Below, piece after piece: positions 13,915 through 32,000 of a stretch of 32,000 bases of DNA; positions within the stretch are counted from its first letter, which is position 1, and every line of letters begins with the position of its first letter. A program made the translations under genes and the position numbers. Below the pieces are notes generated by a model that saw only the letters and a program-made list of their open reading frames with translations, was not told where the DNA came from and ran no database searches. This DNA comes from Planctomycetales bacterium (lineage in GTDB: Bacteria; 4484-113; JAFGCY01), in contig CP060262.1 in assembly GCA_022646745.1 (NCBI GenBank), positions 3,720,001 to 3,752,000 on the forward strand. Reading direction: 5' to 3'.

Positions 13915-14094
13915 TGTTGATGGGGACTGCTCGGGGCTGGATGGCATCCGAGGATTATACAGTCGGCCCTCGCGCGATTGCCAACAATGGCAAACCGGCA
14001 TGTGAACAGGTCACGTTCCAACTGCTTAGGTGCCACAGCTGGCCAGCTGGACTGTGCAGAATTCAGCGTCAAATAAAGTATTTCACCTAACACC

Positions 14095-14116
14095 GATATG
14101 ATATATATGATATATT
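14095..14116. promoter_or_regulatory. AT-only tandem element in the divergent promoter region between the oxidoreductase gene and the por operon
   Basis: gatatgatatatatgatatatt contains TGATATAT twice and sits in an otherwise GC-rich genome. It lies 59-80 nt upstream of ATG 14175. A GAGGAG RBS is at 14163-14168. Confidence 0.3.
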
Positions 14117-14174
14117 CTCTATAAACGTCAGAACTGCTGAATCACAGTTTACGCCAGCGAATGAGGAGCAGTCT

Positions 14175-16497: not shown

Positions 16498-16507
16498 GGA
16501 GCAGGAG

Positions 16508-17668: not shown

Positions 17669-18570
17669 GCCAGACCATCATCAAGGACCGGATCCCCGAA
17701 AACGAACTGCTGATGGGCGGCCACCTGGCCTGCCCCGGCTGCGGCGGCGCGCTGGCAATGCGCCTCGTGCTGAAGGAGCTGGGCCCGAAGACCATCGTGG
17801 TGCTGCCGGCCTGCTGCTGGAGCATCATCGCCGGGCCCTACCCGCAAAGCTCGCTCAAGGTGCCGCTGTACCACACGGCCTTCGAGACCGGGGCCGCAGT
17901 GGCCTCCGGCATCCGCGCCGCCCTCGACATCCAGGGCCAGCACGACACGAACGTGATCGTCTGGGCCGGTGACGGCGGCACTTTCGACATCGGCCTGCAG
18001 GCCCTGTCCGGCGCGGCCGAGCGCAATGAGGACTTCATCTACTGCTGCTATGACAACGAGGCTTACATGAACACCGGCATCCAGCGCTCCTCGGCAACGC
18101 CCTGGGGCGCCTGGACCACCACCACGCCATCGAAGCACCCGCAGGCCACTGACAAGAAGGACATCCTCGCGATCATGGCGGCGCACCGCATCCCCTACGC
18201 GGCCACCGCCTCCGTGTCCTACCCCGTTGACCTCGTTGACAAGGTGAAAAAGGCGATGTCCATCCGCGGCACCCGCTTCCTGCATATCCTCGCCCCCTGC
18301 CCGCCGGGCTGGAAGTTCGAGGACGAGCGCGCCATCGACATGGGCCGCATGGCGGTGCAGTCACGGGTCTTCCCGCTGGTGGAGGTGGAGCACGGCACTG
18401 ACTGGCGCTTCACGATGGACCCGGAGCATGTGCCGGTGCAGGACTACATCCGTGCCCAGGGCCGCTTCCGCCACCTGACGGATGAGCAGATCGGACATAT
18501 CTCGGATGCAGTGGATTACCGCTATGAGCACCTCAGGGATCTGGCGGAAAGGAGCCAGGCAAAGGTCTAG
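17665..18570 (+). CDS. porB: 2-oxoacid:ferredoxin oxidoreductase beta subunit (TPP-binding)
   Basis: Motifs GHLACPGCGG, GDGGTFDIGLQALSGAAERNED and YDNEAYMNTGIQRSSATP are present. The start overlaps the porA stop in an ATGA arrangement. Confidence 0.9.
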   Translation: MSQTIIKDRIPENELLMGGHLACPGCGGALAMRLVLKELGPKTIVVLPACCWSIIAGPYPQSSLKVPLYHTAFETGAAVASGIRAALDIQGQHDTNVIVWAGDGGTFDIGLQALSGAAERNEDFIYCCYDNEAYMNTGIQRSSATPWGAWTTTTPSKHPQATDKKDILAIMAAHRIPYAATASVSYPVDLVDKVKKAMSIRGTRFLHILAPCPPGWKFEDERAIDMGRMAVQSRVFPLVEVEHGTDWRFTMDPEHVPVQDYIRAQGRFRHLTDEQIGHISDAVDYRYEHLRDLAERSQAKV

Positions 18571-18661
18571 TCCCGCTCGACAAAATGTGCAACTAGGCCT
18601 GCGGGATGCCAACCGGAGTCTGTGCCAGTATGATTCCGCTCAAGGAATCAGGGAGCTTAGG

Positions 18662-20356
18662 ATGGCAGGATTGGACTATCACGATTCCAGCAGTGGTATC
18701 GACAGGCGACAGTGGATCAGCTTGGCGTTATTGCCGCTGCTTGCAATTGCACTGGTTTACCTGACCGGAGGCAGTCGCGTTCCGGCAGCTGCCATGTTGC
18801 AGGACAATCCGCCACCACCAGCAAACCGCTCCCCGGTTGCCAGGCTATCCGCTTCCGCTGCGTCAGGCTCCATACCACTTGAGGTCAGTTTTGACGGCTC
18901 CACCAGCGAGGACCCCGACGGTGGCGCACTCAGCTTTGATTGGGACCTCGATGGTGATGGTGTGTTTGAGGTCATTGGCGGAACTCCAGTTGTCACCCAC
19001 ACCTTCACTGAAGCCGGGATATTCACGGTCACCCTGCGGGTCACTGACAACATGCAATGGCAAGACATGGCATCAGTATCGGTCAAGGCCCTTGATGGCC
19101 AGACACCATCCTTCTTCAACCTGCTGGCACCAACACTGGCACCCGTGCAGATGCAGAAGCTGGATGCTCCAGTCGCGGAAATCGGCAGCTTCGAGGAACG
19201 TTACCCGATCTTCAGTGACAGCTGCGATGAGTATTCACTGGCCATCATCCAGAATCTGCCAACGATCTGCTTCTCCCGCAAGGAAGCAGATGGAACACAC
19301 AGCCTGTACTACATGGCGGCAAAGGACAGTCACGGCCTGTCCTGGAACTACCCCCACCAGATCTACAACGATGGATCAGGCAGTTCAGTGCTTCGCTTGC
19401 CCCGGCTGATTGAGGTTTCCGGCACAGCGGCAATCGCATTTCATGGCTACAACAAGTCCAGCGCATCCACCGGAATTGTCTATTTGAGATGCCTCGATCT
19501 GACCGGCAGCGCCTGGCTCTCCCCTGTCTCAGTAGCGGATTCCATTGTTGGGGTCAATTCATTGGAGTTCCTGATTGTGAACGGTAAACCAGCGCTTGCA
19601 TACATTGAAGCACCACATACAGCAAAGGCTGACGGCAAGCTGTATTACGAGCAGGCAGTGGATAAACTTGGCAAGGACTGGTCCCGTGATTCGCAGAAAC
19701 TGGATCAGTGGGCAAACGTCATTTCGTTATCTGTCGTGGGAGGAAAACCGGCAATAGCATTTGTCGGAAAGCGGCTGATAAAGCCCGAAACGACATGGAC
19801 TGCCGCCGAGTTCAGTCCTCCGGAAACTTTCTACATGACTGCAAACGACCCAGACGGGCTGCTCAACTGGAACCTGCCCATCACCGTCAGCAAGGATGTT
19901 TCCTATCCGGACAATGTGGAAAATGACATCGAACTGATGGAGATCGATGGCATGCCCGCCATCTCGTGGTTTGGAGGAGTTGACCCATCGACCTCCAACG
20001 GCAGGGTCGGAGCGGCATTCTACGTATTTTCCGGATGGCAATGGGTCGGTACAGGGTCGACTCCATCTGACAACGGTTTGTCGATAATGGGAATTGACCT
20101 GGCCATGGTTGGGGACACTCCATGCCTGTCCATCCTGCGCACCCACGGGCTGTCCTTGCAGTCTTCCAGCGATCACAGCGGAACTTTCTGGCAAGCAGCC
20201 CGGCAGGTTAGTCCAGATCCTCGTGCGAAATTCTTGGGGAATACAGTTTATTGGAAAAAGGACAATATCCAGTTGATTGAAGTTGATGGCAGGCCGGCCA
20301 TGCTGACGAGGCACGGCAACGGTGCCCTGATGTACATCGTCCAGATGAAGCCCTAG
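18662..20356 (+). CDS. Membrane-anchored or secreted protein with a PKD domain and beta-propeller-like repeats; paralog of the left-edge gene
   Basis: The track start 18482 lies inside porB. ATG 18662 has GGGAG 6 nt upstream. A hydrophobic anchor reads WISLALLPLLAIALVYL. The PKD domain includes EVSFDGSTSEDPDGGALSFDWDLDGDGVFE...FTVTLRVTDN. It is followed by repeats SGTAAIAFHG, NGKPALAYIE, GGKPAIAFVG, DGMPAISWFG and DGRPAMLTRHG, interleaved with D..G..W motifs that resemble Asp boxes. Confidence 0.75.
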   Translation: MAGLDYHDSSSGIDRRQWISLALLPLLAIALVYLTGGSRVPAAAMLQDNPPPPANRSPVARLSASAASGSIPLEVSFDGSTSEDPDGGALSFDWDLDGDGVFEVIGGTPVVTHTFTEAGIFTVTLRVTDNMQWQDMASVSVKALDGQTPSFFNLLAPTLAPVQMQKLDAPVAEIGSFEERYPIFSDSCDEYSLAIIQNLPTICFSRKEADGTHSLYYMAAKDSHGLSWNYPHQIYNDGSGSSVLRLPRLIEVSGTAAIAFHGYNKSSASTGIVYLRCLDLTGSAWLSPVSVADSIVGVNSLEFLIVNGKPALAYIEAPHTAKADGKLYYEQAVDKLGKDWSRDSQKLDQWANVISLSVVGGKPAIAFVGKRLIKPETTWTAAEFSPPETFYMTANDPDGLLNWNLPITVSKDVSYPDNVENDIELMEIDGMPAISWFGGVDPSTSNGRVGAAFYVFSGWQWVGTGSTPSDNGLSIMGIDLAMVGDTPCLSILRTHGLSLQSSSDHSGTFWQAARQVSPDPRAKFLGNTVYWKKDNIQLIEVDGRPAMLTRHGNGALMYIVQMKP

Positions 20357-20449: not shown

Positions 20450-20477
20450 TTGATCTATAGTGATTCGACTGTAAAAT
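20450..20477 (+). promoter_or_regulatory. Sigma70-like promoter candidate for the Cys-rich protein gene
   Basis: TTGATC (20450-20455), a 16-nt spacer, then TAAAAT (20472-20477). The predicted transcription start falls inside the palindrome at 20482-20497. Confidence 0.4.
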
Positions 20478-20481
20478 TACC

Positions 20482-20497
20482 GTGGATAACTATCCAC
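20482..20497. promoter_or_regulatory. Perfect 7-2-7 palindrome, operator candidate; each half resembles a DnaA box
   Basis: The sequence is gtggata-ac-tatccac. In context, cGTGGATAA and cTATCCACA each match the DnaA-box consensus TGTGGATAA/TTATCCACA at 8 of 9 positions. It lies immediately downstream of the -10 candidate. Confidence 0.4.
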
Positions 20498-20530
20498 AGA
20501 TCCAGAACCAAGTTTGTTGTGAGGGATATC

Positions 20531-21136
20531 GTGAGGAAAACACTTTCAATTTGGGTGCTGCTGTGCCTGTTGGCCCTCGGGTCGGCGGCCAGCGCAGCGG
20601 AGCAGATTGACCTGAACTGCGTCAAGATGCCGCGCTGCTGCACCATCTCCTGCGTCAAGATCGACCTCGAGTGCTGTGGCTGCTACGGCGCCAGCGGCGC
20701 CCTGTGGGCCGAATTCCTCGACCGCAGCGGCAACGTGCTCGGCACGGCCACCTTCAACGGCAACTGGTGCCGTTGCGAGACCACTGCCACACTCGACAAC
20801 CCGGTCAACTCCAGCGAGGTCTGCAGCGTGCGCCTCGTCAAGGAGGATGACAGCGTCATCGTGACCTGGGGTTCCCTGCGCGTGTTCTGCGAGGGCAATT
20901 GCGACTGCGGCAAGTGGAAGATGGCCTGGAAGGGCGACCTGTGGTGCTGGGAGCCCGTGCCCGAGCCGGTGATGGATGAGCCCGTCGCCGTCGTGCCGCC
21001 GGCCCCGGTGAAGAAGCCTGCCCCGCCGGTCGTGGCGAAGAAGCCCGAGCCGAAGCATGACTTCTCCTACTTCCCGCCGCAGAAGGAAGAGGAGCCCCAG
21101 GACGAGGAAGTGATCGTCGTCATCGGTAACGGCTAA
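20531..21136 (+). CDS. Small secreted cysteine-rich protein with a Pro/Lys-rich acidic tail (unknown function)
   Basis: GTG 20531 is preceded by GAGGGA, and the product begins VRKTLSIWVLLCLLALGSAASAAE, a signal peptide. The mature region has 14 Cys in CC, CxC and CxxC patterns (RCCTISC, ECCGCYG, WCRC, CEGNCDCGKW, WCW). The tail reads PEPVMDEPVAVVPPAPVKKPAPPVVAKKPEPK. The track TTG start at 20450 coincides with the promoter candidate. Confidence 0.65.
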   Translation: MRKTLSIWVLLCLLALGSAASAAEQIDLNCVKMPRCCTISCVKIDLECCGCYGASGALWAEFLDRSGNVLGTATFNGNWCRCETTATLDNPVNSSEVCSVRLVKEDDSVIVTWGSLRVFCEGNCDCGKWKMAWKGDLWCWEPVPEPVMDEPVAVVPPAPVKKPAPPVVAKKPEPKHDFSYFPPQKEEEPQDEEVIVVIGNG

Positions 21137-21164
21137 GCCTTACCAAGCTCAACCAGAAACAAGG

Positions 21165-21201
21165 AGGCCTGCCCTGGAAGTCCAGTGGCAGGCCTTTTTT
21201 T
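21165..21201 (+). terminator. Strong rho-independent terminator between convergent genes; marks the compositional boundary
   Basis: The stem aggcctgccctgg / ccag-t-ggcaggcct has 13 bp with one bulge and an aagt loop. It is followed by a run of 7 T. Confidence 0.85.
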
Positions 21202-21243
21202 GTACGTGGTTGTCTGGAAGATGTGATTGCTACATGCGGACAA

Positions 21244-21990
21244 TCAACCGGCAATGGTCAATAAGTGCGTGATTCTCTTCGTTCTGTACTTCATTAGTCG
21301 AGATAAATTGTCCTTCCAGTTGTCAACCAGAACTGGTTCATTCCAATTCAGTTCAGAGTACCAACTTGGAACCAGATCACTGCGGAATCCTGATCTGCCG
21401 TTTAATGATTCTTCGCCATATAGATCAATGTATCGCTGGAAAAATGCGGCTTTTATATTGTCCGAGTTATCAGTAGGCCTGACGGTTCCTTTAGGCAATA
21501 AAACCACATTGCACGCACATGTAAAGTCTCCATTGGGAACAAGGTCCACGTTAATACTGGAGAAATATCTTTGCTCAAGTACAAGCTCACTTTGCTTATG
21601 TGAGAAAACGTGAGCTAACTCAAACTCACATAATCCAGTTGACTTCCATTTTGGTCCACTGTAAGCGCTTCCATATTCCAGGTAGCACCAGATATGCCTT
21701 GGAAATGTGTTGTCGTCAATGATCGCTCTAAATTGTGGATTGTATGATTTTCGTTTTCCCTGGCCACTGACGTATCTTTTTACTCCCGGGAACACACATG
21801 TTGACCCTTGAAACAGATAGCTATCCAAATCAATCTTATCTTTGAACAACTCAGCGAAATATTCCCGCTCAGCCGCATTCTGATCTGCTATTCTTTGGGC
21901 AATCTTCGGGTGGATATGATATGCGAGTGATGCAAGGATTTTACATATTCCAAGCTCATGCTCAAATATTTTATTATGTGCAATTTGCAT
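21244..21990 (-). CDS. Hypothetical protein (248 aa) with a weak HNH_2/His-Me-finger-like motif
   Basis: This is a long ORF in very AT-rich DNA. The segment CEFELAHVFSHK...NVVLLPKGTVRPTD loosely resembles the 'C..leaAHI.p ... NgllL...H..FD' pattern of HNH_2 nucleases, but the second His is absent. No signal peptide is present. Confidence 0.55.
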   Translation of the reverse strand: MQIAHNKIFEHELGICKILASLAYHIHPKIAQRIADQNAAEREYFAELFKDKIDLDSYLFQGSTCVFPGVKRYVSGQGKRKSYNPQFRAIIDDNTFPRHIWCYLEYGSAYSGPKWKSTGLCEFELAHVFSHKQSELVLEQRYFSSINVDLVPNGDFTCACNVVLLPKGTVRPTDNSDNIKAAFFQRYIDLYGEESLNGRSGFRSDLVPSWYSELNWNEPVLVDNWKDNLSRLMKYRTKRITHLLTIAG

Positions 21991-22144
21991 TATTAACTGT
22001 AACTATCAGTAACATCCTGCACATACATTGGTGGAGGGAACGTGGGCTATGGGTAGAGCATGCGCAGCGCTCCCGAGATCCAGCCGTGATACCCTGAAAG
22101 CCGTAGTCAACATTCCAACAGAAACTTCAAGGTGGTGAACAAAG

Positions 22145-22303
22145 ATGGCAAGAGGAAAGAAGTTTGATCTGAGCGCTCTTCCGATCAGGGTCGTCTACTC
22201 GGATGAACCCATGCGGGAAGAAGCCCTGCGTGATGCAATGCTTGCCTTGATGACGAGCTGGGACAACTGCAAGTCTGACATGCGAATTGATGATGATAAC
22301 TAA
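22145..22303 (+). CDS. Possible small ORF (52 aa), unknown function
   Basis: Translation is MARGKKFDLSALPIRVVYSDEPMREEALRDAMLALMTSWDNCKSDMRIDDDN. AAGGTGGTGA lies ~8 nt upstream, and an in-frame TGA sits just upstream of the ATG. The ORF is below the track's length cut-off and I recognise no homology. Confidence 0.2.
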   Translation: MARGKKFDLSALPIRVVYSDEPMREEALRDAMLALMTSWDNCKSDMRIDDDN

Positions 22304-22465
22304 TTTTGGATTCGTTCAAGACATTACTGAAAATGGATTCTGACTGTGCATGTACTTGACCTGCTCGATCAAACGGGTACGAATATATTTTCGCGATGGG
22401 CATACATCAGAATGCCGTATGAAAATTCGGCTGTAACTTCCAGTATTTGCCTTTTTGCTTGGTAA

Positions 22466-24964
22466 CTACAGAACATTCACCTTAAATTCGTGCGCTGCGA
22501 ATTCCTCATAGGGATTGTCCAAGTACAGTGTGATCGTCACATTCGATCCAGAAGGAGCAGTGATATCTACAGTTGGAGACTGCAATGATGAGTCACTCGT
22601 CGTTCCGAGCGTGCCAAAGTCCCATAACCACGTGGTAGGAATGCCATGTTTCATGGCAAATGAGAACTTCACACCTACAGCGTCAGGTGCAACGAGCGTT
22701 GGACTGACGGCTAGTACTTCCATAGACATTACGTCAATGCTGTATTCCGCTGTATCTGTATTCGCAGGATTACTGGCCTGATAGGCTGTCACGCTCAGAT
22801 CAGACCATCTACCCACTTGAGTGGCTGTGGCAGTCCGCGATCCGCCGTTTTCCGAACCCGGAAAGAATGCTTCGGGAATGTTCCATTCGTAAATGACATC
22901 AGGCGGAGGACTGCCGATTAGCACTGCCTTTATTTCAAATTGCTCGTTCGTGCCGATTTCGATTCCCGCAATCGGAGCCAGCTGGATTAGATTCTCCGCC
23001 GGGTCAATCTGCAAGGAGAAATAGAGGATAGATTCAGAATCTTCGATCAGTGGATCGCTGACAGTTACGGAGCAGGTATAGGGAACCGCCCTGGACTTTC
23101 CAAGGACAATAGTAGGAACCCGCAAGGCGCTTGTAGTCGGCGTGGCCGCTGCAGTTTCTCCATCCTGGAAGTTCCAGAGGTAGCTAAGTCGAGCCGGATC
23201 TGCATACGGACCAGCTCCATCCAAAGTCAGCACTGACACTCCAAGTGTAGCTTCGCTTCCTTCAGTTCCCAAAGCTCCTGTTACTGCGCCAAGACTGAAG
23301 TCAGGTTCATCTGAAGGCTCTGCAGTGATTGTCAATGCGAACACCTTACTCTGCTTCAGACCGGACTGCAGCGGATCGGACACCTCCACGCTGCAGATGT
23401 AGGGCGATTGTGAAGCTGAACCAAGAATTACCGTCGGACCTGCTGCTGAACTCGTTGCCGGAGTTGCCGCTGATGGCCCTTCGCCGGTCTTGAAATTCCA
23501 GCTGTATGTCAGATTCTGCAGATCTGGATAAGACAAACCGGTTTCGGAGTCCAGTATCTCAATAGTCAGTGTGGAAGCGTTGTTCTCGAGACCGGAAGTA
23601 CCCAGAACCTCGCCTAGTTTGAATTCCGATTGGCCAGGCAGAATATCAACAAAAAATTCATAGGAGGCCGGATCAGCACCCTGCTCTCCCGCAAACGAAA
23701 CGCCCAAGCTGACCGGAAACTTACCCGGCTTCACGAGGGATACGAGCGGTTCGGAAGCCTGGCTGCTTTCTGGGGAGACGCCATTCCCGAGAGTCCAGCT
23801 GAACTCCAGCTGCTCCAGAGGAATTGGTATTCCGGCACCGTCACTCACCATAGGCACCAGGCGGAGTATTTGACCAACCCGGCCTTGCAGTTCAAAATCC
23901 TGCAAGGGCTGCAAATTTGATCCGTCAAGTCCGTATTCCAACCCATCTATCTGCAGATCAGGATTGACGCGGAAAGTGAAATCATGACGGACAGCGGTCT
24001 CTTCCGCATGATTCAAAGTGAACACCCGCACGCTTCCCGGAAGCAGTAGATCCGATGCTCCCCCCAGCTGAACCAGGGGCTTTGCAGCGCCGGGTTCATC
24101 AGACGTTCCAATATTGCCAAAATCCCATTCATATCCATAGATAGATGGGTCCGCCGTATCCTGAAGCTCTAGTGAAAACTGAACCTCGCTTCCGGCTTTA
24201 CCCGCTTGCGGAGAAACCGATAGCGGGACAGGAGATTCCGGAATGAGCTGCAAAAAATTGCTCTGGTAATTGGTGTTATCAGGAAGTGCGATAGGAGTGA
24301 CACTAACATTCACCATGTAGGACTGCTTTGAAGTATCCAGGAATGTAACTACAGGATTGGCAAGTTTACTCGTACGAAAAATTGGACCTTCAGGGCTCTC
24401 GCCTTCCCTAATAGTCCATTCGAACTTGTAATCTTTCTCTGAATGTCCCGATGGTTCCAGTTCCACGGAAAAAGCAACCGGTCTTCCATATGAATCGGAA
24501 TCCCAGCTAATCTCTCCGAGACTGAAACTAAAGGGCAAGACTTCATACGTGAATTCGTACGTCTGTTCGGGCGGACTATCCCCGCTGCCCTGACGGATCC
24601 GCAGAGTCCCACTGAATTCCTCCTTGGAGTCAACATGGGCAAGCACCATCTCCGGTTCCTTTGCCGTACTGTACCTTTCCAAAGTACCGCCCTTGTCGTC
24701 TTTGGCCCAAAAGTCCCACAGGAACTCGGCAGGTGTTTTTTCGTCGCGGAACACAGCCTGGTATCTGAAGCTGGCTGTCTCTCCCGAAAACGAGCTGGCC
24801 TCGTTGACAACAGCGAGCGTATCCGGCAGATGCTGCCTGTCATTCTGCAGGTCGCGCACTGACCCACAGGACGAAGCAGTCGCGGCTATAACGCTGCACA
24901 GTAGGATTCCGCAGAAACGTTGGATGTTCCTGCAATCAGTCAGGAAAATTGCGGCGCTATTCAT
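22466..24964 (-). CDS. Predicted lipoprotein (832 aa) built from ~8 tandem PKD/Ig-like modules
   Basis: The track start 25084 lies inside the secretin gene. ATG 24964 overlaps the secretin stop by 8 nt (ATGAATAG). The N-terminus MNSAAIFLTDCRNIQRFCGILLCSVIAATASSCGS is a signal peptide with a lipobox-like Cys. Eight aromatic-x-W-[DNT]-[FIL] motifs occur (FLWDF, FEWTI, YEWDF, FSWTL, YSWNF, YLWNF, YEWNI, WLWDF), roughly one per 90-110 aa. Confidence 0.8.
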   Translation of the reverse strand: MNSAAIFLTDCRNIQRFCGILLCSVIAATASSCGSVRDLQNDRQHLPDTLAVVNEASSFSGETASFRYQAVFRDEKTPAEFLWDFWAKDDKGGTLERYSTAKEPEMVLAHVDSKEEFSGTLRIRQGSGDSPPEQTYEFTYEVLPFSFSLGEISWDSDSYGRPVAFSVELEPSGHSEKDYKFEWTIREGESPEGPIFRTSKLANPVVTFLDTSKQSYMVNVSVTPIALPDNTNYQSNFLQLIPESPVPLSVSPQAGKAGSEVQFSLELQDTADPSIYGYEWDFGNIGTSDEPGAAKPLVQLGGASDLLLPGSVRVFTLNHAEETAVRHDFTFRVNPDLQIDGLEYGLDGSNLQPLQDFELQGRVGQILRLVPMVSDGAGIPIPLEQLEFSWTLGNGVSPESSQASEPLVSLVKPGKFPVSLGVSFAGEQGADPASYEFFVDILPGQSEFKLGEVLGTSGLENNASTLTIEILDSETGLSYPDLQNLTYSWNFKTGEGPSAATPATSSAAGPTVILGSASQSPYICSVEVSDPLQSGLKQSKVFALTITAEPSDEPDFSLGAVTGALGTEGSEATLGVSVLTLDGAGPYADPARLSYLWNFQDGETAAATPTTSALRVPTIVLGKSRAVPYTCSVTVSDPLIEDSESILYFSLQIDPAENLIQLAPIAGIEIGTNEQFEIKAVLIGSPPPDVIYEWNIPEAFFPGSENGGSRTATATQVGRWSDLSVTAYQASNPANTDTAEYSIDVMSMEVLAVSPTLVAPDAVGVKFSFAMKHGIPTTWLWDFGTLGTTSDSSLQSPTVDITAPSGSNVTITLYLDNPYEEFAAHEFKVNVL

Positions 24965-27263
24965 CGAGGATCTCCGGGATGACAATGATATAGATTTCGC
25001 TGCGTTCCTTGACAATGGAGCGCTTGCGGAACAGCTTCTTAACGATCGGCATGTCGCCCAGCAGCGGGACTTTGTCGACATCAATCTGATCCTTCTCGCT
25101 GATCATGCCGGCAAGCACAAAGGGCTCTCCGTCACGCACGTTGACAATCGTCTTCAGGCTGCGGCGCAGGTAGCGCGGAGGATTGAAGGAAGTCCCTCCG
25201 ATCGTTGTGTCATTCACAAGTGTGGTGACTTCAGGCAGGACTGCGATTGTCAGCAGGTCGTCTCCGCTTATGATTGGCTTGAAGCGAAGCGTAACCCCGA
25301 TGTTCAGGTAACTGACATTGTCTGTCACCTTTGTCGTATTGTTGTTCAAATACTCTTCGGACTGAATATAAGGCACCCTGTCTATTGCGCTGTAAACAGC
25401 TTCGAAGTTCTCGATAGTGCTCAGGTCCGGTTCGGCAAGTAATGTGATTTCACCATCACGAATCAGTGTGTCAAGGCTGGCACTGAAGTTGAGACCGTTA
25501 TCCCTGGTGTAACCCTCAATTGAGTCAGTCTCATAACGATTGTTCTTGCCAAGAAACTCAGTAAATGTTGTTGCAATGCTATCTGAGGTGATATCCATGC
25601 CGAGCTGTTTCCGAGCCCGTTCACTGAATTCACAAACCCGGACTTTGAGTTTGATTCCCCTCGGCCTGCGGTCCAGGCCACGAATGATCTGCATTACACG
25701 GCTCAGGGACTCTTCACTTGGAGCTGTGACCACTATGGAATTCTGTGATATCAGGATGTTCTTCTTGCTAGCATCGTCCGGATTGAAGAAATCGCCAAAC
25801 ATATTTACTTGGGACTCCGGAAGATTCTTTTCAGCAGGTGAAATTCGTTTCTCCAGTTCTGAATTGTCAAGATTGCTAGCTTTGGTCTTTGGCTTATCTG
25901 CTGTTTCCCCGTTTTCTGGAATAGTCCCTGATTCGGGAGTTCCGTTTGCTGGAGGTGCTGCGCCTTCTTGCTTAGTACCATTATCTCCTCCACTTCCAGT
26001 TGGATTTGCATTTCCAGGTGCTCCCGCAATATTATTGTTTCCTTTGCCCGGGTTCTCTTCTCCACTAATCAGCTTAAGTAATTTTTCAATACACATTCCG
26101 AAAGACGGATCAAGCTTGCTATTTATCTTTTCAAGTTGCTTGGAGATTTCTGCTAATTCCGTAGAGAAAGTCTCAATTTCTTTAGGCAAGTCATCATAAT
26201 TCTCAATCATTGTCACTCTAAGCCATTTCAATTCACTCTTTAGCTCAACTAGATTAATTTTATCTAAATCAGCGAGTAGCTTTTTCAAATTTGCAACATC
26301 AACATTCAGCTTCTTGGTTTCCGCATTGGCTTCCTTGAGGGACTTTATCAGTCCAGGAATTTCAGAAATCTCAACCGAGACAATTCCTTTACTCTTTCCA
26401 TTGACAATACTATAGGAATTGCCGGACTGATCCATCATCAGTACCCCTTCAAATTCCTCGGAATAGGCAGGGGCAATATTCGTCAGCCACTGCAGCGCCA
26501 TCTTGCTTGTGATGAAATGCAGATCCACCCTGCCAACCGCCGGTCTGTCCCTCTCGTATTCTTGTAACTTTCCTTCCTTGTCCAGCTTTGGCATATGCAG
26601 GTTTCTCTGCATGTTGCCAATATCGACCACGGCGCTCGTTTGCTGAGGCACACCAATCCGTGGCATGCGTAACATGTATAGAAAGCCACCACCAGGCTTC
26701 TGCTGGTTGCCCTCAACTTCCACAATGCTGACGCCCAGCCGGTTGAGGTCGGTTGAATCAACGAAGCTGATCAACAGGCCATTGCCAAAACCCTTACGGT
26801 AGCAGGGTAATACTTCCCGGGCCAGACTACAACATTGCCGACACCCACAGGTATCACCGGGAAAGCCCTGGCATCTGTGACAGGAATCAGAGCTGCCATA
26901 GACACCACAGCTGCAGGGAGCATCCGTGCAACGACAGGTCAATAAGCCTGCCTGGAAATCAAGATCCTTCGAATGTACAAAGAGGCAATTGGAAAACTTC
27001 CATTTCTCAATCTGCCAATGCACTCGCTGATCAGTGCTGATGAACAGCAGATCCGATCCGCATTGCGAACACGATTTAAGGCACTCGTCTCCGCGCATCG
27101 ACTCGGGATTGAAATCCAGGCATGCTTCGCATTCCGAACAACTGCCAGATGAATCACATGTACTGTAATAGCCCATGACAGTTGAAGCTTCGGCTGCAAT
27201 CAGGAATGCAGGCTGTACCAGTAACGCAATCAACATCAGGCATAGAAAACTAGCTTTCCTCAT
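24957..27263 (-). CDS. Secretin-family outer-membrane channel (GspD/PilQ-like C-terminal domain) with an atypical Cys-rich, coiled-coil and disordered N-terminal region
   Basis: The signal peptide is MRKASFLCLMLIALLVQPAFLIAAEAS. About 130 aa follow with ~30 Cys (CSECEAC, CLKSCSQC, CRCTDAPCSCG, CHRCQGFPGDTCGCRQCC). Next comes a heptad-like region (LKEANAETKKLNVDVANLKKLLADLDKINLVELKSELKWL) and a G/N/P/T-rich linker. A secretin N-type domain follows (IVVTAPSEESLSRVMQIIRGLDRRPRGIKLKVRVCEF). The canonical secretin core ends VNVRDGEPFVLAGMISEKDQIDVDKVPLLGDMPIVKKLFRKRS...EIYIIVIPEIL. Confidence 0.85.
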   Translation of the reverse strand: MRKASFLCLMLIALLVQPAFLIAAEASTVMGYYSTCDSSGSCSECEACLDFNPESMRGDECLKSCSQCGSDLLFISTDQRVHWQIEKWKFSNCLFVHSKDLDFQAGLLTCRCTDAPCSCGVYGSSDSCHRCQGFPGDTCGCRQCCSLAREVLPCYRKGFGNGLLISFVDSTDLNRLGVSIVEVEGNQQKPGGGFLYMLRMPRIGVPQQTSAVVDIGNMQRNLHMPKLDKEGKLQEYERDRPAVGRVDLHFITSKMALQWLTNIAPAYSEEFEGVLMMDQSGNSYSIVNGKSKGIVSVEISEIPGLIKSLKEANAETKKLNVDVANLKKLLADLDKINLVELKSELKWLRVTMIENYDDLPKEIETFSTELAEISKQLEKINSKLDPSFGMCIEKLLKLISGEENPGKGNNNIAGAPGNANPTGSGGDNGTKQEGAAPPANGTPESGTIPENGETADKPKTKASNLDNSELEKRISPAEKNLPESQVNMFGDFFNPDDASKKNILISQNSIVVTAPSEESLSRVMQIIRGLDRRPRGIKLKVRVCEFSERARKQLGMDITSDSIATTFTEFLGKNNRYETDSIEGYTRDNGLNFSASLDTLIRDGEITLLAEPDLSTIENFEAVYSAIDRVPYIQSEEYLNNNTTKVTDNVSYLNIGVTLRFKPIISGDDLLTIAVLPEVTTLVNDTTIGGTSFNPPRYLRRSLKTIVNVRDGEPFVLAGMISEKDQIDVDKVPLLGDMPIVKKLFRKRSIVKERSEIYIIVIPEILDE

Positions 27264-27301
27264 CCAGCACCTCTCTGAAATGACAAGCCAATCTTATGGC
27301 T

Positions 27302-27336
27302 GGCAATTCAAGATGATGTTAGGCAATTCTCAAGAT
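27302..27336. promoter_or_regulatory. Direct repeat pair in the secretin upstream region; candidate response-regulator site
   Basis: ggcaattcaagat (27302-27314) and ggcaattctcaagat (27322-27336) start 20 nt apart, about two helical turns. They lie 39-73 nt upstream of the secretin ATG at 27263. Confidence 0.35.
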
Positions 27337-27344
27337 TAAATCAA
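27316..27344 (-). promoter_or_regulatory. Sigma70-like promoter candidate for the secretin / PKD-lipoprotein pair
   Basis: On the minus strand: TTGATT (27344-27339), a 17-nt spacer, then TAACAT (27321-27316). A GAGAGG RBS lies 7 nt before the ATG. The direct repeats overlap the spacer and the predicted transcription start. Confidence 0.3.
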
Positions 27345-27448
27345 GTCTTTTTCGTGATGTTGACAACAAGCCAATAAACCAGGGGAATACTTATGCAATT
27401 TTGATAATGTTTCACGGAGAAAAACAAGTGTGGATTCAAGCGCTTAAC

Positions 27449-28495
27449 TTAAGCACTCGGCAGTTCTACAATGAATGTGCTGCCAACAGCGACAGCGCTT
27501 TCCAGCCTGACACTGCCACCAAGCTGTTTGACAACGCTGTGCACCTTGCTAAGTCCGAGGCCCGCCCCCTGGTAATCTCCCGCGCGAGCGGCGCTTGCCC
27601 GGAAGAAGCGTTCGAAGATGCGCGGCTGCTCATCTGCCGGGATTCCGATTCCGCTGTCGTGTACAGACAACAAGACTGAACTTTCTGCAAGGTCCAGACT
27701 GACATGTACTTCTCCACCATGCGGTGAGTACTTGATCGCATTGTCAATGAGGTTGTAAATCACTTCATGCAGCGCAGGCTTATTTGCAAAGACCCTGGGC
27801 AGAACATCCACAACTGTAAGTTGAAGCTTTACATCTGACTTTGCTGCGCTTTCACGCCGGCTGTCAATGACATCCTCAGTAATCTGTCTGATATCAGTGG
27901 CCTCCAGCGGATCCGGGAATCCTGCTCTATCCAACCGGGAGAGGAAAAACAGATCGTTGATGGTGCGATTCAAACTGCCCGTCAGTCGCATGATGTTCCC
28001 GAGGTATTCATCTGTCTTACCCTGGCCGTCAGGCATAGCAATCTGAAGGGTTTCGGCATAACCCCTGATACTGGCAAGTGGCGTCTTCATTGAATGTGCC
28101 AGGCTGTCAATCAGTTGCCAATGCTCCTCGTCTTGCCTGCGTCGCTCAGCTCTGTCAAGGTGAATCAACAAAACACCTCCCTCAAGACCCAACACCAGAC
28201 TATCTAGGAATTGTGTGGCCACCGATCCATCAATCTCTATACGTTCACCAGCTGCAGGCATATTTAGTAGAACATGCTCAATGGAAGTCGACCGCAAGGA
28301 TGGCAGCATCTCAAGGAATTGGAGCGGAAACTTCGGCTCCGACAGCAGTGAATGCAGCTGGCGGAATTCCATGTTGGCATTCAATGCGAGACACTCTGAG
28401 CTCAGCAGGCATGCAGGATGCTTCAGGGCGGAACAGAGATCCAGCATGGCTTCGCCATGTAGTTGAACGCTCTTACTGTGCGAGTAAGGTAGCAC
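27449..28495 (-). CDS. Soluble (no TM segment) sensor histidine kinase, HisKA + HATPase_c
   Basis: The H-box is LAHSMKTPLASIRGYAETL and the N-box is NLIDNAIKYSPHGG. G1 is DSGIGIP..FERFFR and G2 is GAGLGLSKV. The ~130-aa N-terminal region has no hydrophobic helices. The start is either GTG 28495 or ATG 28447. Confidence 0.85.
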   Translation of the reverse strand: MLPYSHSKSVQLHGEAMLDLCSALKHPACLLSSECLALNANMEFRQLHSLLSEPKFPLQFLEMLPSLRSTSIEHVLLNMPAAGERIEIDGSVATQFLDSLVLGLEGGVLLIHLDRAERRRQDEEHWQLIDSLAHSMKTPLASIRGYAETLQIAMPDGQGKTDEYLGNIMRLTGSLNRTINDLFFLSRLDRAGFPDPLEATDIRQITEDVIDSRRESAAKSDVKLQLTVVDVLPRVFANKPALHEVIYNLIDNAIKYSPHGGEVHVSLDLAESSVLLSVHDSGIGIPADEQPRIFERFFRASAARAGDYQGAGLGLSKVHSVVKQLGGSVRLESAVAVGSTFIVELPSA

Positions 28496-28509
28496 TAATG
28501 AACAGCATA

Positions 28510-29211
28510 TCAGGCATCACCGCCCGATCCATCGAAGCGATATCCCACACCCCACTTGGTGCGGATGAACCTTCGGGCAGTACCCAGTGCCTGGCGAATG
28601 GAGCTGATGTGCACATCTATGTTGTGCGTATCTACATAAACATCATCACCAATCGCCAGATTGATCAACTGGTCACGAGTAAAAACCCGACCATCATGCT
28701 CTGCTAGGGTTTGCAGCAAGCGGAACTGTGTGGCGGTCAGGTTTATGGGAATCCCGTGAACCGTTACTTCATGCCCCAGCGTGTCAATACTGAGCTCCTC
28801 GAAGCAAAGCTGGCTACCCTTTTCCATTCCACGACTCATCCTTCGTTGAAGGGCCCGTACACGGGCAACCATTTCCCTTACACCAAATGGCTTGGTCATG
28901 TAGTCATCTGCACCAAGTTCAAGGCCACTGACTACGTCCGCCTCCTCTCCGCGGGAGGAAATTATCATAACTGGCACATTGGCCGTCTTACGACTGGCCC
29001 GCATGGCACGGCATACATCCAGGCCCTGCATGCCTGGCAACATGAGATCCAGCAGCAGCATATCCGGTGGAGACGCAAGAACTCGTTCGAGACCCTGAGT
29101 TCCATCACGGTCATGCGTGACACTGTACCCGGAATTGCTGAGATTCTCCGTGAGAATCTCCACCAGGTCGGCATCGTCTTCGATTATGTGGATTGATGCG
29201 GGAGGTGTCAT
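28510..29211 (-). CDS. OmpR/PhoB-family response regulator
   Basis: ATG 29211 is preceded by AGGA; the track start 29409 over-extends into the S8 gene. Receiver residues are present (IIEDD, LLLDLMLPG, IISSRG, YMTKPF). The winged-helix C-terminus includes LTATQFRLL...VDVHISSIRQAL...IRTKWGVGYRF. Confidence 0.9.
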   Translation of the reverse strand: MTPPASIHIIEDDADLVEILTENLSNSGYSVTHDRDGTQGLERVLASPPDMLLLDLMLPGMQGLDVCRAMRASRKTANVPVMIISSRGEEADVVSGLELGADDYMTKPFGVREMVARVRALQRRMSRGMEKGSQLCFEELSIDTLGHEVTVHGIPINLTATQFRLLQTLAEHDGRVFTRDQLINLAIGDDVYVDTHNIDVHISSIRQALGTARRFIRTKWGVGYRFDGSGGDA

Positions 29212-29236
29212 GAGGTTTTCCTGAGCTTGTAAGCAA

Positions 29237-30721
29237 TCATCTTCTACATAGGACCTTGATTGGCTTGTTAAAAAGGGAATACTTGCTTTCCGTACCAAGA
29301 TTCCTTTCCCTGGCGATACTATCGACAACAGACAGACCATTGCTTTTGATACTCCAGAAGTTGTTTGCAAGGCAACCAGCAAGGATTGGTGCAGCAAAAC
29401 TGGTGCCACTTTCTATCTTCAACTCACCATTCTTATCAATTGTGGGAACTCTTTCTCCTGGAGCATATACCTTCACATTATCAGACCTGTTTGAGCTGAC
29501 TGAAACATCAAGGAAAATTCCATTTTCTGACAGCTTGCCACAAAGGGAACCTACCGCAATCACTGAATCTTCCACACCCGGATACTGAATGGACGTTTCC
29601 GAACCGTCATTGCCTGCTGCTGCAACAATTGGCACCCCGATTGTGTCAAAGTACTTCAGAGTTCGTGCTAATCCAATATTCTTTCCCCCTTCATTCTCCC
29701 ATGTCGAAGTAATCACTACCATATTTACGGCATGGGCAGGTTCATCCTCCGTGCGATCTAGCAGGATAGATTCTATCGTAACAGGCTTCCGACCCAATAC
29801 AGAACAGAATGCCCTTAAAATGTCATCTGTGCTTGAATGTGCTCCTTCAGATATCTTGCACGGAAGAATCTTAGTCTTGTGGGATAACCCGATTCTCCTT
29901 TTGACGTGGTTGCAGCTGTATTCCCTTTGGCTGGCAATTAGTGAGGCAACCTGAGTTCCGTGACCGTGGTTGTCAATCGGCGGATCCCAGAACTTCGGTG
30001 GCACATGCCAGTTCAGTGTATGTGACCCAAGATACTGATTAACAGTTTGGAAATTATCTTGATAGATATCGGCTTCGCGCAGGTTTACCCCAGTCCCAAT
30101 TACGCCTATGATCACACAATCTTCTACTTCTGAATCATGCCGCATGCTGTCTTCACACGTACCCAGCATTTCGTACAACCAGCAATCTGAGGTAGAAAGG
30201 TCGCTGTCACCTGCCAGTGATTTTTCAGAAAAGGTTCTTACGGGCTGAGGATCCTGCCACGAGACTAACACTTGATTACGTAACTCCTTATCATTTGACA
30301 TGGACATCTGCCGCAACCATTCCGCAAAGTCACGCTCAGATGCAGGCTCACTATCTGCCGTACATAGAACCGTCACATGCACCAGGGCCGATTCCGCGAA
30401 GTCAAAATACTCAAAGTCAGCTGTACCAGTCTCGCCGATGTAGATCATATATGCTTCCAGCATCTGCACAAGCAGAACGCATATCCACTCCTGACCGATC
30501 GGTTCTCCGTTGGAATACTTTTCCACGAGCTTTACTGTCAAACTGTAAACTTTTTGGAAGATACGAACAAATTTGACGAGACGCTCATGAATTGAGGTTG
30601 TAGCATCATACTTTATGGAGTCTAGAATATTTCTGACGACAGCAATCTGTTCTTTGCTGACTTTGCCTTTATTCCGGACGAAATTGATTTCATATGTTCT
30701 TGTAACCCAATACATACTCAT
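29237..30721 (-). CDS. Cytoplasmic S8 subtilase-like protein with a ~200-aa N-terminal extra domain; catalytic Asp position occupied by Gly
   Basis: The His motif DNHGHGTQVAS, the oxyanion Asn in VAAAGNDG and the Ser motif ESGTSFAAPILAG are all present. The normally conserved (V/I)DTG motif reads VIGTGV, with the Gly codon GGG at 30095-30097. No signal peptide is present. The start is ATG 30721 or 30715 (AAGGA upstream). The track GTG start at 30808 overlaps the upstream gene. Confidence 0.8.
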   Translation of the reverse strand: MSMYWVTRTYEINFVRNKGKVSKEQIAVVRNILDSIKYDATTSIHERLVKFVRIFQKVYSLTVKLVEKYSNGEPIGQEWICVLLVQMLEAYMIYIGETGTADFEYFDFAESALVHVTVLCTADSEPASERDFAEWLRQMSMSNDKELRNQVLVSWQDPQPVRTFSEKSLAGDSDLSTSDCWLYEMLGTCEDSMRHDSEVEDCVIIGVIGTGVNLREADIYQDNFQTVNQYLGSHTLNWHVPPKFWDPPIDNHGHGTQVASLIASQREYSCNHVKRRIGLSHKTKILPCKISEGAHSSTDDILRAFCSVLGRKPVTIESILLDRTEDEPAHAVNMVVITSTWENEGGKNIGLARTLKYFDTIGVPIVAAAGNDGSETSIQYPGVEDSVIAVGSLCGKLSENGIFLDVSVSSNRSDNVKVYAPGERVPTIDKNGELKIESGTSFAAPILAGCLANNFWSIKSNGLSVVDSIARERNLGTESKYSLFNKPIKVLCRR

Positions 30722-30735
30722 TCCTTTGGAATAAA

Positions 30736-31479
30736 CTACGGGCAGGTCCACTCGATACGACACTGATTCGGGCTGCTTAAATCGTAATACGGTTTGTCGT
30801 CTTCCCACTCCGGATCACTATGAGCGTGACCAACAGCTTTGTACGAATTAATGACTTCGTCTTCCAGATATTTTTCTTCCCCACAAGTGAAATCGAGCGA
30901 ACTGCTAATGGAATTCTTCCACAGCCTATCTTTTTCGTCCATAACATAAAACGTCACTTCATAAGGGAATGTCCTTCTGATACAGGGTGTTGAGGGGGTG
31001 CAGATTGCGCATGTGTATGCCTGCCCCGTGCTGAAAGGATCGTGCTTACTAGTTGTTTTGAACCAGGGATATGATCCATCAGTGGGCTTCGGAAGCAGTT
31101 TACCCACAGGGTTTTCTTTTGCATTGACGGGTATAAGCCTGATCTCTGTCAGCACATTATCAATCTGCCCGGAAGAATTCACTGTAAAACGGATTGAGTC
31201 CTTTAGTTCATTAAGTCTTGCCATGAATGCAAACCGGACAAGAACACTGCTGTCATCTTTCACCATAGGTATCACTTTTGCCTGTGGAGTGGATTTTGCA
31301 ATCAGTGTTTCCCTCTCATTGTTCGCATAGTGATGTATTATCACGTTGTAGTGCAAATCTCCGGAAAGTGAGGAATCAAGACCAGCATAATCATTGTCAT
31401 ACAGGTATCGGCAATGACTCATACCATTGTCCGAAGCGAACACTTGAAGTTTCTGATTTGGAATCGATACGATTGTCAT
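30736..31479 (-). CDS. Hypothetical protein (247 aa), no recognisable motif; encoded directly upstream of the S8-like gene
   Basis: The ORF has AAGGAG 6 nt upstream of ATG 31479. It starts 16 nt after the TPR gene stop and ends 14 nt before the S8 start. No signal peptide, TM segment or Walker motif is present. The sequence looks beta-rich, and the C-terminal part has 6 Cys. Confidence 0.7.
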   Translation of the reverse strand: MTIVSIPNQKLQVFASDNGMSHCRYLYDNDYAGLDSSLSGDLHYNVIIHHYANNERETLIAKSTPQAKVIPMVKDDSSVLVRFAFMARLNELKDSIRFTVNSSGQIDNVLTEIRLIPVNAKENPVGKLLPKPTDGSYPWFKTTSKHDPFSTGQAYTCAICTPSTPCIRRTFPYEVTFYVMDEKDRLWKNSISSSLDFTCGEEKYLEDEVINSYKAVGHAHSDPEWEDDKPYYDLSSPNQCRIEWTCP

Positions 31480-31495
31480 GCAATTCTCCTTAGCT

Positions 31496-32000
31496 CTAAT
31501 ATATCGGAGACTCTTTATCCACGGAATTCCGCTGAGCCTGATTGACTTTTAAATCAGTGAGTTGTCTGTGAAAGTCTAGATCTACCGGTCTTCCCAGGGC
31601 CTCATACAGGGCATCAGCTCTGGCCTGGGAATCCTGCCTGCCATGTTCGTCTCCGGCCCGTTGATGAGCCATTGCCAGCATCACGATTGACCGGCCCTCG
31701 AAGATGTGCTCACCCAGTTCATTGAACAGCTCCGCAGATTGACGCAGTTCGTTGATTGCCAGTCCATGCCGCCTATCAGCTGACAATGCCCAGCCTCGTA
31801 CCTGCAGCAGGTAGGCAAACTCCGTAGGATGCTCCTCGCGATCACAACCTGCTCCCAGCAGCTGCAGTTCCTGCTGCGCTGCTTCGGCCTGACCTTCTTC
31901 CAGCAGCATTACTGCCAGATGTATTTTGACCTGATACATCATTCCCGGCAGGAGTCCCTGCTCCACCAGCCCGAGACATTCCGCATAGCGCGCACGGGCC
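31496..32000 (-). CDS. TPR-like helical-repeat protein, C-terminal part only (5' end beyond window)
   Basis: The frame stays open upstream of the track's GTG 31966 all the way to position 32000 (...ARARYAECLGLVEQGLLPGMMYQ...). The sequence has alanine-rich helix-pair repeats (AAQQELQLLGA..., FAYLLQVRGWAL..., AINELRQSAELFNELGE..., SIVMLAMAHQRAGD...). Confidence 0.6.
   Translation of the reverse strand, partial: ARARYAECLGLVEQGLLPGMMYQVKIHLAVMLLEEGQAEAAQQELQLLGAGCDREEHPTEFAYLLQVRGWALSADRRHGLAINELRQSAELFNELGEHIFEGRSIVMLAMAHQRAGDEHGRQDSQARADALYEALGRPVDLDFHRQLTDLKVNQAQRNSVDKESPIY

Follow-up and report, generated by a model that had tools for sequence, protein, structure and literature searches.

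A seven-gene planctomycete locus with an atypical secretin, a two-component system and a wholesale-replaced cassette, probably under common control

Introduction

The secretins characterised to date all, to our knowledge, depend on a dedicated motor in the inner membrane. The 32,000-nt stretch of DNA from a Planctomycetales MAG analysed here (the window) contains a secretin gene within a run of genes that also encode a PKD-domain lipoprotein, a two-component system, a subtilase-like protein and a protein of no family, and this raises the question of what such a channel might serve and whether these genes belong together. Envelope biology in the Planctomycetota is poorly understood, and literature searches on orphan secretins, on the combination of secretin, PKD and two-component genes, and on the sample accessions returned nothing relevant. 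We find that the seven-gene block is real and so far undescribed, and we infer a function for it from its gene order, its relatives and its likeness to known systems.

Results

The seven ORFs of the block are all present on the minus strand of the window and Pfam confirmed their domains, as a preliminary description of the locus had claimed. In transcription order they encode a TPR_12 protein (3' part of the gene, 31496-32000, continuing past the window end), a 247-aa protein without a family that we call X (30736-31479), an S8-like protein (29237-30715; 492 aa; Peptidase_S8), an OmpR/PhoB-family response regulator (28510-29211; 233 aa; Response_reg and Trans_reg_C), a soluble histidine kinase (27449-28495; 348 aa; HisKA and HATPase_c), a secretin (24957-27263; 768 aa; PF00263), and a PKD-domain lipoprotein (22466-24964; 832 aa by external gene calls). 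The coordinates give intergenic spacings of 16, 20, 25, 14 and 185 nt followed by an 8-nt overlap; these agree with the earlier values except for the second, which becomes 14 nt if the S8-like gene starts at an ATG two codons upstream. The segment is also more AT-rich than its flanks, as first described, with a GC content of 0.45-0.53 in 21000-32000 vs 0.59-0.67 in 1-19000. No tRNA genes were found in the window and no Rfam families in 21000-32000, and a scan for sigma-70 promoters and terminators showed no enrichment. Further variable spots adjoin the locus in the low-GC segment.

The genes probably form two transcription units, the first running from the TPR gene through X, the S8-like gene and the regulator to the kinase and the second consisting of the secretin and PKD lipoprotein genes. 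Among the seven products, N-terminal hydrophobic leaders were predicted in the secretin and the PKD protein only, so that all five products of the first unit are predicted to be cytoplasmic and both products of the second to be exported. The 8-nt overlap between the secretin and PKD genes is kept in all three lineages that carry the block, and the lipoprotein is presumably translationally coupled to the secretin. The S8-like and regulator genes overlap by 4 nt in two lineages, a tight coupling that survives the cassette differences described below, and the gap before the secretin gene measures 185-244 nt across lineages. Beyond the TPR gene lies a divergent operon encoding Haem_oxygenas_2, FeeM and Cyt-b5 proteins, followed by genes for an fn3 protein, small exported proteins and a WD40 protein.

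The preliminary description had staked its proposal on these genes co-occurring elsewhere, and the identical seven-gene order was indeed found in two further lineages (secretin identity 100, 90 and 69% across the three). In the third and more distant of them, represented by contig L009, the flanks are unrelated: SucD and NmrA lie on one side and unknown proteins of 703 and 974 aa on the other, and the Haem_oxygenas_2/FeeM/Cyt-b5 operon is missing. The distribution is narrow, being confined to three related uncultured planctomycete lineages, and as they are kin, some of the shared gene order may reflect descent and not selection. A full-length secretin search, which scored the 8,000 candidates with the most shared words, found three close and three distant relatives among those candidates. 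A metagenome scan with the secretin alignment gave just two distant, unrelated secretins, and a genome-collection scan with the TPR protein gave one irrelevant cyanobacterial TPR match. A prophage or plasmid origin was considered and is unsupported by the phage and plasmid comparisons, which matched the secretin core only and found no other phage family.

The secretin is recognisable in its C-terminal part. Pfam Secretin (PF00263) matches residues 600-766 only (120 bits), which places the core domain in that family. The GspD model TIGR02517 matches residues 442-767 at model positions 301-591, with 117.9 bits vs a cutoff of 351.35, and the protein has neither the N0-N1-N2-N3 arrangement nor the equivalog-level score of a GspD. 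Scores against the other families are similarly placed (PilQ 77 vs 284, MshL 86 vs 250, SctC 75 vs 238); the protein shows neither the cutoff-level scores nor the family-specific N-terminal domains of PilQ, RcpA or SctC, and its PDB matches cover the core only. Secretins from PDB, phages and plasmids match residues ~495-766 only and phrog_1012 matches residues 486-766, while PHROGs revealed no other phage family in the block. Phage tblastn matches are ~24% identical and restricted to the core, and the arrangement of filamentous-phage export, a pIV-like secretin beside morphogenesis genes, is not what the locus presents.

Upstream of this core, no Pfam match to Secretin_N or N0 appeared in residues 28-471 even at E<=10. 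The protein begins with a signal peptide, a Cys-rich domain, a conserved region, a helical (coiled-coil-like) stretch and a low-complexity linker, after which the C-terminal part consists of an N3-like domain and the secretin core. Judged by sequence comparison, the N-terminal two thirds (~495 residues, with many conserved Cys and the helical region) is unique, and full-length secretins of 768-779 aa with the invariant Cys occur in all three lineages. An AF2 model of the secretin was unusable (pLDDT 35). The PKD protein contains two PKD stretches according to Pfam and is 89% and 38% identical to its counterparts in the other lineages; reading its sequence reveals a lipobox-like ...ATASSC, and all three lineages have such a motif.

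Window ORFs of at least 150 aa contained no domain of a secretion ATPase, platform or pilin, as had been claimed, and no such genes lie within ~22 kb on one side and 7.5 kb on the other side of the block. The preliminary description would have been undone by T2SS, T4P or Tad genes just beyond the window, and none were found in the 7.5 kb searched there. In the two other lineages, 10 kb on either side is likewise free of secretion ATPase, platform and pilin genes. Genes for GspE, GspF and pseudopilins are thus absent from the window, the 7.5 kb beyond it and the relatives' flanks, and the term orphan holds for this neighbourhood, ~40 kb of a 4.1-Mb genome.

It is possible, if doubtful, that a T2SS, T4P or Tad machine encoded elsewhere in the genome uses this secretin as an accessory or alternative channel, in which case the block would be a regulated spare with a lipoprotein partner and no autonomous device. 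Its core and N3-like region match GspD, RcpA, pIV and PilQ, planctomycetes scatter their T2SS, T4P and Tad genes, and the ~40 kb inspected is a small part of the genome. However, N0, N1 and N2, through which the secretins of known systems dock to their inner-membrane partners, are replaced by the unique Cys-rich and helical region, which is kept in three lineages. Moreover, the scores fall far under every equivalog cutoff, and a regulator and a lipoprotein of its own accompany the gene.

The most distinctive feature of the locus, which the preliminary description missed, is a cassette with sharp boundaries, made up of X and the S8-like gene, that is replaced wholesale between relatives. When the 13.3-kb window-type contig L007 was compared by blastn with contig L011 of the second lineage, no DNA similarity was found across 29225-31570 (window coordinate = 33551 minus L007 coordinate), whereas the flanks are 88% and 91% identical. 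The replaced segment comprises the last ~25 TPR codons, X and the S8-like gene. Between the window type and the second lineage X is 27% and the S8-like protein 29% identical, vs 83-97% for the other five proteins, and in each of the three lineages these two genes are lower in GC than the rest of the block. Within the population no cassette polymorphism was seen, as 12/12 window-type contigs carry the same allele, and contigs with the window-type regulator are ~100% identical to one another.

X has no signal peptide and no transmembrane segment, and searches of Pfam, NCBIfam, PADLOC and PHROGs returned nothing for it. A word-index search of 5.8e9 proteins returned X itself only, and an exhaustive phmmer search of 1.84e9 representatives returned itself and the second-lineage allele only. 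Although X is hypervariable, at 27% and 23% identity to the syntenic genes, one central linear motif, NPxGxLxPKP, is invariant. The AF2 model of X was unusable (pLDDT 30).

The S8-like protein, predicted to be cytoplasmic, consists of an N-terminal domain of ~200 aa without a known family and a subtilase domain that belongs to PF00082 (70.2 bits vs 21.8). It is 28-29% identical to the syntenic genes. When aligned with subtilisin BPN', the three alleles share invariant H64, N155 and S221; the D32 position holds Gly in the window and second-lineage alleles and Asp in the third. A complete Asp-His-Ser triad is therefore lacking in two of the three alleles, which makes proteolysis of X doubtful there. 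A profile search with the three alleles recovered the alleles themselves and then generic subtilases at E ~1e-20. The best generic subtilase, P0012, was rejected, as its neighbours (LysM, amidohydrolase and GerE genes) are unrelated to those of the block.

The TPR protein, 575 aa at full length on identical public contigs and predicted to be cytoplasmic, is 83% and 54% identical to its counterparts in the two other lineages. It is conserved through ...EALGRPxxVDF, beyond which the tail varies. Residues ~245-421 resemble the Pins/LGN TPR array and residues 1-240 have no family match; the N-terminal regions of the TPR and S8-like proteins show no mutual similarity.

We considered whether the TPR protein, X and the S8-like protein could be a conflict module for anti-phage defence or kin discrimination, with X and the S8-like protein as its specificity-determining pair, under diversifying selection and horizontally exchanged, and the two-component system and secretin serving as output or mere neighbours. 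The sharply bounded, lowest-GC allelic cassette is consistent with this, as are the orphan status of X, the low-GC setting with adjoining variable spots, and weak sub-threshold matches to IetS/IteS S8 models and VMAP-M8. It is nevertheless unlikely, as PADLOC gave no significant system match but only generic subtilase, TPR, receiver and HATPase models, with X, the secretin and the PKD protein matching nothing, so that no known defence system was recognised. In addition, no toxin-type effector domain emerged, a single allele is shared by the 12 window-type contigs, and the catalytic Asp is missing in two S8 alleles.

The regulator and kinase have the receiver and winged-helix domains and the HisKA and HATPase_c domains, respectively, of an OmpR/PhoB-family two-component system. 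The best NCBIfam match of the regulator is PhoB, at 219.6 bits and below the cutoff of 296.2, and its identity to the second and third lineages is 97% and 78%. The kinase, which has no transmembrane segment, comprises an N-terminal domain of ~110 aa followed by HisKA and HATPase_c. Compared with the second lineage, where the match spans the C-terminal 213 aa of the gene call, it is 96% identical, and compared with the third 54%. Its scores are 167 vs a cutoff of 334 for PhoR and 195 vs 400 for PnpS, and the pair has neither the equivalog-level scores nor the membrane-anchored PhoR of the phosphate regulon.

Four 11-bp units, CTTGATTTAAT CTTGAGAATTG CCTAACATCAT CTTGAATTGCC (27302-27345, minus strand), form an array in the 185-nt gap that precedes the secretin gene, and this array is a candidate response-regulator box. 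The pattern CTTGAN6CTTGA has one match in the window, upstream of the secretin gene, where ~0.03 would be expected per 32 kb. In L007 its exact form occurs three times and always in promoter regions; the TPR gene is preceded by two copies and the secretin gene by one. In two lineages the repeat upstream of the TPR gene also faces the divergent neighbour operon. L009 has an exact box ahead of the TPR gene and, ahead of the secretin gene, a box with a single mismatch in spacers that are otherwise poorly conserved. CTTGA-N6-CTTGA, with a spacing typical of OmpR/PhoB regulators, is thus a candidate box for the regulator on the logic of the motif. Its presence upstream of the TPR, secretin and divergent operons and its retention in a distant lineage argue for one regulon.

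This direct repeat, phased at 11 bp and common to both operons, argues against the earlier suggestion of two unrelated modules that happen to adjoin. More broadly, the TPR/X/S8 genes, the secretin-lipoprotein pair and a two-component system with a housekeeping role might be functionally unrelated and adjacent only through genome kinship; the block does occur in only three related lineages, and a gap of 185-244 nt splits its two units. Such a coincidence is quite improbable, however, given the same rare repeat upstream of both units and a block that stays intact despite differing L009 flanks and internal cassette replacement. Finally, a RiPP-like cluster, with X as precursor, the S8-like protein as leader peptidase, the TPR protein as scaffold, the secretin as export route and FeeM, Haem_oxygenas_2 and Cyt-b5 as tailoring enzymes, is very improbable: it draws on weak matches, all far below cutoffs, that link the TPR protein to HaaT and the S8-like protein to PatA/PatG, and on a small biosynthetic operon next door with the same box facing it, but the 247-aa X has no repeated cores or recognisable leader, the block has no modifying enzyme or inner-membrane exporter, the neighbour operon is absent in L009, and two S8 alleles lack the Asp.

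Discussion

The seven genes are probably one locus, restricted to a small clade and under common control. As a tentative explanation, whose chance of being right as a whole we put slightly short of even, we propose that the locus is co-regulated in the following way. The soluble kinase would sense an intracellular cue and phosphorylate the OmpR/PhoB-type regulator, which would then bind the CTTGA-N6-CTTGA boxes that precede both operons, its own and that of the secretin, and, in two lineages, the box facing the divergent Haem_oxygenas_2/FeeM/Cyt-b5 operon. Binding would switch on the outer-membrane secretin channel and the lipoprotein, and the latter may be a cargo or surface-displayed partner (cf. 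PulA) or a structural accessory. The TPR protein, X and the S8-like protein would act as an accessory input module in which the Pins/LGN-like TPR array may bind the NPxGxLxPKP motif of X, while X and the S8-like protein may vary together and pass between lineages as one cassette. The regulator binding, the signal, the passenger of the channel and the interactions of X with the TPR and S8-like proteins are steps that we infer. One point counts against the hypervariable pair as the source of the signal: the sensor should then co-vary, but kinase and TPR protein alike are conserved.

A bolder version would make the locus an autonomous, signal-switched outer-membrane device, in which a secretin with a novel N-terminus and without a T2SS, T4P or Tad motor exposes or releases the co-translated PKD lipoprotein, under the control of a cytoplasmic two-component system that takes its input from an allele-swappable sensor module of TPR protein, X and pseudo-subtilase. 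We consider this unlikely at present.

A secretin without motor-docking domains, accompanied by a regulator and a lipoprotein of its own, could show how far the motor rule extends. The cassette, in turn, is a case in which an orphan protein and a subtilase-like protein, often without its Asp, are block-replaced within a conserved operon; replacement of this sort usually marks specificity or conflict functions. Both the candidate regulator box at three promoters and the candidate TPR-binding motif in X are directly testable predictions. The narrow range of three related uncultured lineages limits the general importance of the locus.

Several known systems resemble parts of the locus. As in Rap-Phr and other RRNPP systems, a TPR gene lies directly upstream of a gene with a short linear motif, a response regulator is encoded in the same operon and a subtilase-family protein is at hand; Phr peptides are matured by subtilases. 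Unlike those systems, X is long and non-secreted, the partners are all predicted to be cytoplasmic and there is no Opp-type importer. Family searches detected no homology to Rap, NprR or PlcR.

The agrBDCA system of S. aureus and comQXPA of B. subtilis likewise have a diverged cassette within a conserved operon that includes a kinase and a regulator, and the cassette of our locus similarly pairs a substrate-like with an enzyme-like protein. Unlike agr and comQXPA, the kinase sensor does not co-vary, as the DNA downstream of the cassette, whole kinase gene included, is 91% identical between two lineages. Moreover, X has 247 aa and no export signal, the S8-like enzyme has no Asp in two alleles, and different alleles were seen between lineages only and not within one population.

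The secretin differs from GspD in having no N0, N1 and N2 and no sequence past the secretin domain for an S domain, and from the T2SS in having no GspC-M, ATPase or pseudopilin gene nearby. Its N3-like domain and core are nevertheless homologous to those of GspD, and the coupling of a lipoprotein gene to the secretin gene recalls PulD and PulA, where a lipoprotein crosses or decorates the outer membrane via a secretin.

The closest parallel for the control of the locus is the PhoR-PhoB regulon. The locus differs from it in its soluble kinase, in scores below equivalog cutoffs and in its targets, a secretin and a PKD lipoprotein, and the half-site CTTGAG presumably differs from the pho box. The best model matches are nonetheless PhoB and PnpS/PhoR, and the same pairing of a receiver/winged-helix regulator with a HisKA/HATPase_c kinase is present. 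Like pho boxes, the repeats are phased at 11 bp and lie close upstream of the start codons of their putative target operons, the regulator's own operon included.

Organization and surroundings of the gene block

ORF calls and Pfam searches recovered the seven consecutive minus-strand genes preliminarily described at 22466-32000. In transcription order, these encode a TPR protein (from 31496, past the window end), the 247-aa protein X (30736-31479, no Pfam family), an S8-like protein (29237-30715, Peptidase_S8), an OmpR/PhoB-type response regulator (28510-29211, Response_reg and Trans_reg_C), a soluble histidine kinase (27449-28495, HisKA and HATPase_c), a secretin (24957-27263, Secretin at residues 600-766 of 768 only), and a PKD lipoprotein (22466-24964, PKD). 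The in-window TPR fragment has no Pfam match; public contigs with the same sequence as the window give the full product, a TPR_12 protein of 575 aa, and the TPR gene is the first of the block in these contigs and in those of a close relative. Spacings of 16, 25, 14, and 185 nt and an 8-nt overlap stand as originally reported, while the second gap comes to 20 nt (or 14, the earlier figure). The low GC content ascribed to the block was also borne out (0.45-0.53 vs 0.59-0.67 in the first 19 kb of the window). The window lies on a 4.1-Mb contig of a "Planctomycetales bacterium" MAG. Public gene calls conflict on identical DNA (L008 vs L011, contigs of the close relative): some pipelines call the secretin at 605-623 aa, thereby losing the signal peptide and Cys-rich domain, and L008 carries a 213-aa call for the kinase; the conserved forms are the long ones, at 347-348 aa (kinase) and 768-779 aa (secretin).

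The remaining window genes encode a Na/Ca exchanger, BipA, an alcohol dehydrogenase, 2-oxoacid:ferredoxin oxidoreductase subunits, a PKD protein, and several unknowns, including large ORFs of 1667 aa (4026-9029, plus) and 671 aa (10887-12902, plus) in the high-GC part with zero Pfam matches. L008 lacks the 624-aa PKD-domain protein (18482-20356, plus) at the site where the window has it, past the oxidoreductase genes and before the block, so that these close relatives differ here by an insertion or deletion. A 228-aa Cys-rich protein with a Pro/Lys-rich tail and no family match follows (20450-21136, plus; DNA 93% conserved in L008). Directly downstream of the PKD lipoprotein gene is a low-GC 248-aa gene without a family match (21244-21990, minus), a position that holds a 1347-aa protein with a weak S8 domain in the close relative (L008:15036-19079) and is a second variable spot adjoining the block. 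In two lineages, the TPR gene adjoins a divergent Haem_oxygenas_2/FeeM/Cyt-b5 operon on its upstream side, FeeM being the N-acyl amino acid synthase family. Its three genes occupy L002:109-1827 (minus strand) on a contig reaching beyond the window end, followed by an fn3 protein, small exported proteins, and a WD40 protein.

The secretin and PKD lipoprotein

The secretin carries a signal peptide in all three lineages known to hold the block, followed by an N-terminal region with many invariant Cys, a conserved region, a predicted helical stretch, a low-complexity linker, and the secretin domain at the C-terminal end. Likeness to any secretin (NCBIfam, PDB, phages, and plasmids) is confined to residues ~495-766, all scores fall far below the family-specific cutoffs, and N0, N1, and N2 domains were not detected. 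The PKD proteins of all three lineages share a lipobox-like motif. As first stated, no secretion ATPase, platform, or pilin is encoded in the rest of the window, and none occurs among the neighbours just past its end, where their presence would have spoken against a novel system. It is possible, if rather doubtful, that this is a spare secretin serving a motor encoded elsewhere.

A replaced cassette

Relative to the second lineage (L008, L011, and L012), DNA is 88% identical until ~75 nt before the TPR stop codon, lacks detectable similarity for 2.35 kb, and returns at 91% identity ~13 nt before the regulator start codon, so that the replaced stretch spans approximately 29225-31570. As the TPR protein is conserved as far as ...EALGRPxxVDF, the cassette is essentially X plus S8. 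Window-type proteins share 27% (second lineage) and 23% (third lineage, L009) identity for X, and 29% and 28% for the S8-like protein. The corresponding values are 83% and 54% for the TPR protein, 97% and 78% for the regulator, 96% (C-terminal 213 aa of that gene call only) and 54% for the kinase, 90% and 69% for the secretin, and 89% and 38% for the PKD protein, which diverges faster than the secretin. In each lineage, GC within the block is lowest in X and S8, and every contig of the window-type population carries the same cassette allele. X is an orphan in protein database searches, with NPxGxLxPKP as the sole invariant stretch among the three alleles compared.

The S8-like protein has no signal peptide, and its N-terminal domain of ~200 aa is without a known family. 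In alignment with subtilisin BPN', His64, Asn155, and Ser221 are invariant, while position 32 is Asp in the third lineage and Gly in the window allele and second lineage. At least two alleles therefore appear to be impaired or non-canonical proteases. Such an exchanged cassette could belong to a conflict or kin-recognition module, an explanation we consider unlikely.

Conservation across lineages

The preliminary description had allowed that the adjacency would be fortuitous if these genes never co-occurred elsewhere. All seven were found, in unchanged order, in two further lineages. In the second, L008 and L011 are identical over 14.3 kb and L012 has the same genes, the source being a 296-kb scaffold. 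In the distant third lineage, the block sits on a 64.5-kb JGI contig with unrelated flanks on both sides (succinyl-CoA ligase and NmrA; unknown 703- and 974-aa proteins) and the divergent operon is absent. An 8-nt overlap of the secretin and PKD genes is common to all three lineages, and the S8 and regulator genes overlap by 4 nt in the two lineages other than that of the window. We therefore regard fortuitous adjacency as improbable. No further carriers were found in any collection searched; the distribution is narrow and the carrier lineages are related to each other, which limits the wider importance of the locus.

A candidate regulator box

Four 11-bp-phased units, CTTGATTTAAT CTTGAGAATTG CCTAACATCAT CTTGAATTGCC (27345-27302), lie in the 185-nt gap that precedes the secretin gene. 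Direct repeats with this phasing near promoters are typical sites of OmpR/PhoB-family regulators. The exact box CTTGAN6CTTGA occurs once in the window, in this gap, against an expectation of 0.03 per 32 kb. L007, a 13.3-kb public contig of the window type, has three: one precedes the secretin gene, another the TPR gene (37-52 nt from its start codon), and the third, on the opposite strand, the divergent Haem_oxygenas_2 gene, at a distance of 75-90 nt. Since this last box (L002:1902-1917) faces the divergent operon, that operon may belong to the same regulon. In the third lineage, the TPR upstream box is exact and the secretin upstream box has one mismatch, while the spacer DNA around them is poorly conserved. 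The strongest evidence at hand for autoregulation by the two-component system, and for control of the secretin-PKD unit by that system, is this shared box, which the regulator is predicted from sequence to bind. A small hairpin (27287-27304, minus; GCCAGCC-ATAAGAT-TGGCT) lies past the box array, ahead of the secretin start codon; it is kept in the second lineage, not in the third, and may be due to chance or act as a 5'-UTR element.

Most economically, and tentatively, we read the locus as one regulon confined to this clade, in which a cytoplasmic two-component system would control both the operon that encodes it and two envelope proteins, the atypical secretin and PKD lipoprotein. The TPR, X, and S8-like trio would serve as an accessory or input module with an exchangeable part, X plus S8. 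Arrays of the Pins/LGN type, to which that of the TPR protein belongs, bind extended peptides, and the invariant motif of X is thus a plausible TPR ligand. That the block is instead a RiPP-like cluster seems very improbable.

Comparison with known systems

By membership tests, the locus falls outside T2SS, T4P, Tad, T3SS, and phage pIV export, outside PhoR-PhoB, RRNPP, and known defence systems, and outside catalytically complete S8 peptidases. Its parts are of known kinds and their combination is undescribed. In its putative function, the closest likeness is a two-component-controlled secretin/lipoprotein pair. The allelic cores of the agr and comQXP loci, in turn, resemble its cassette.
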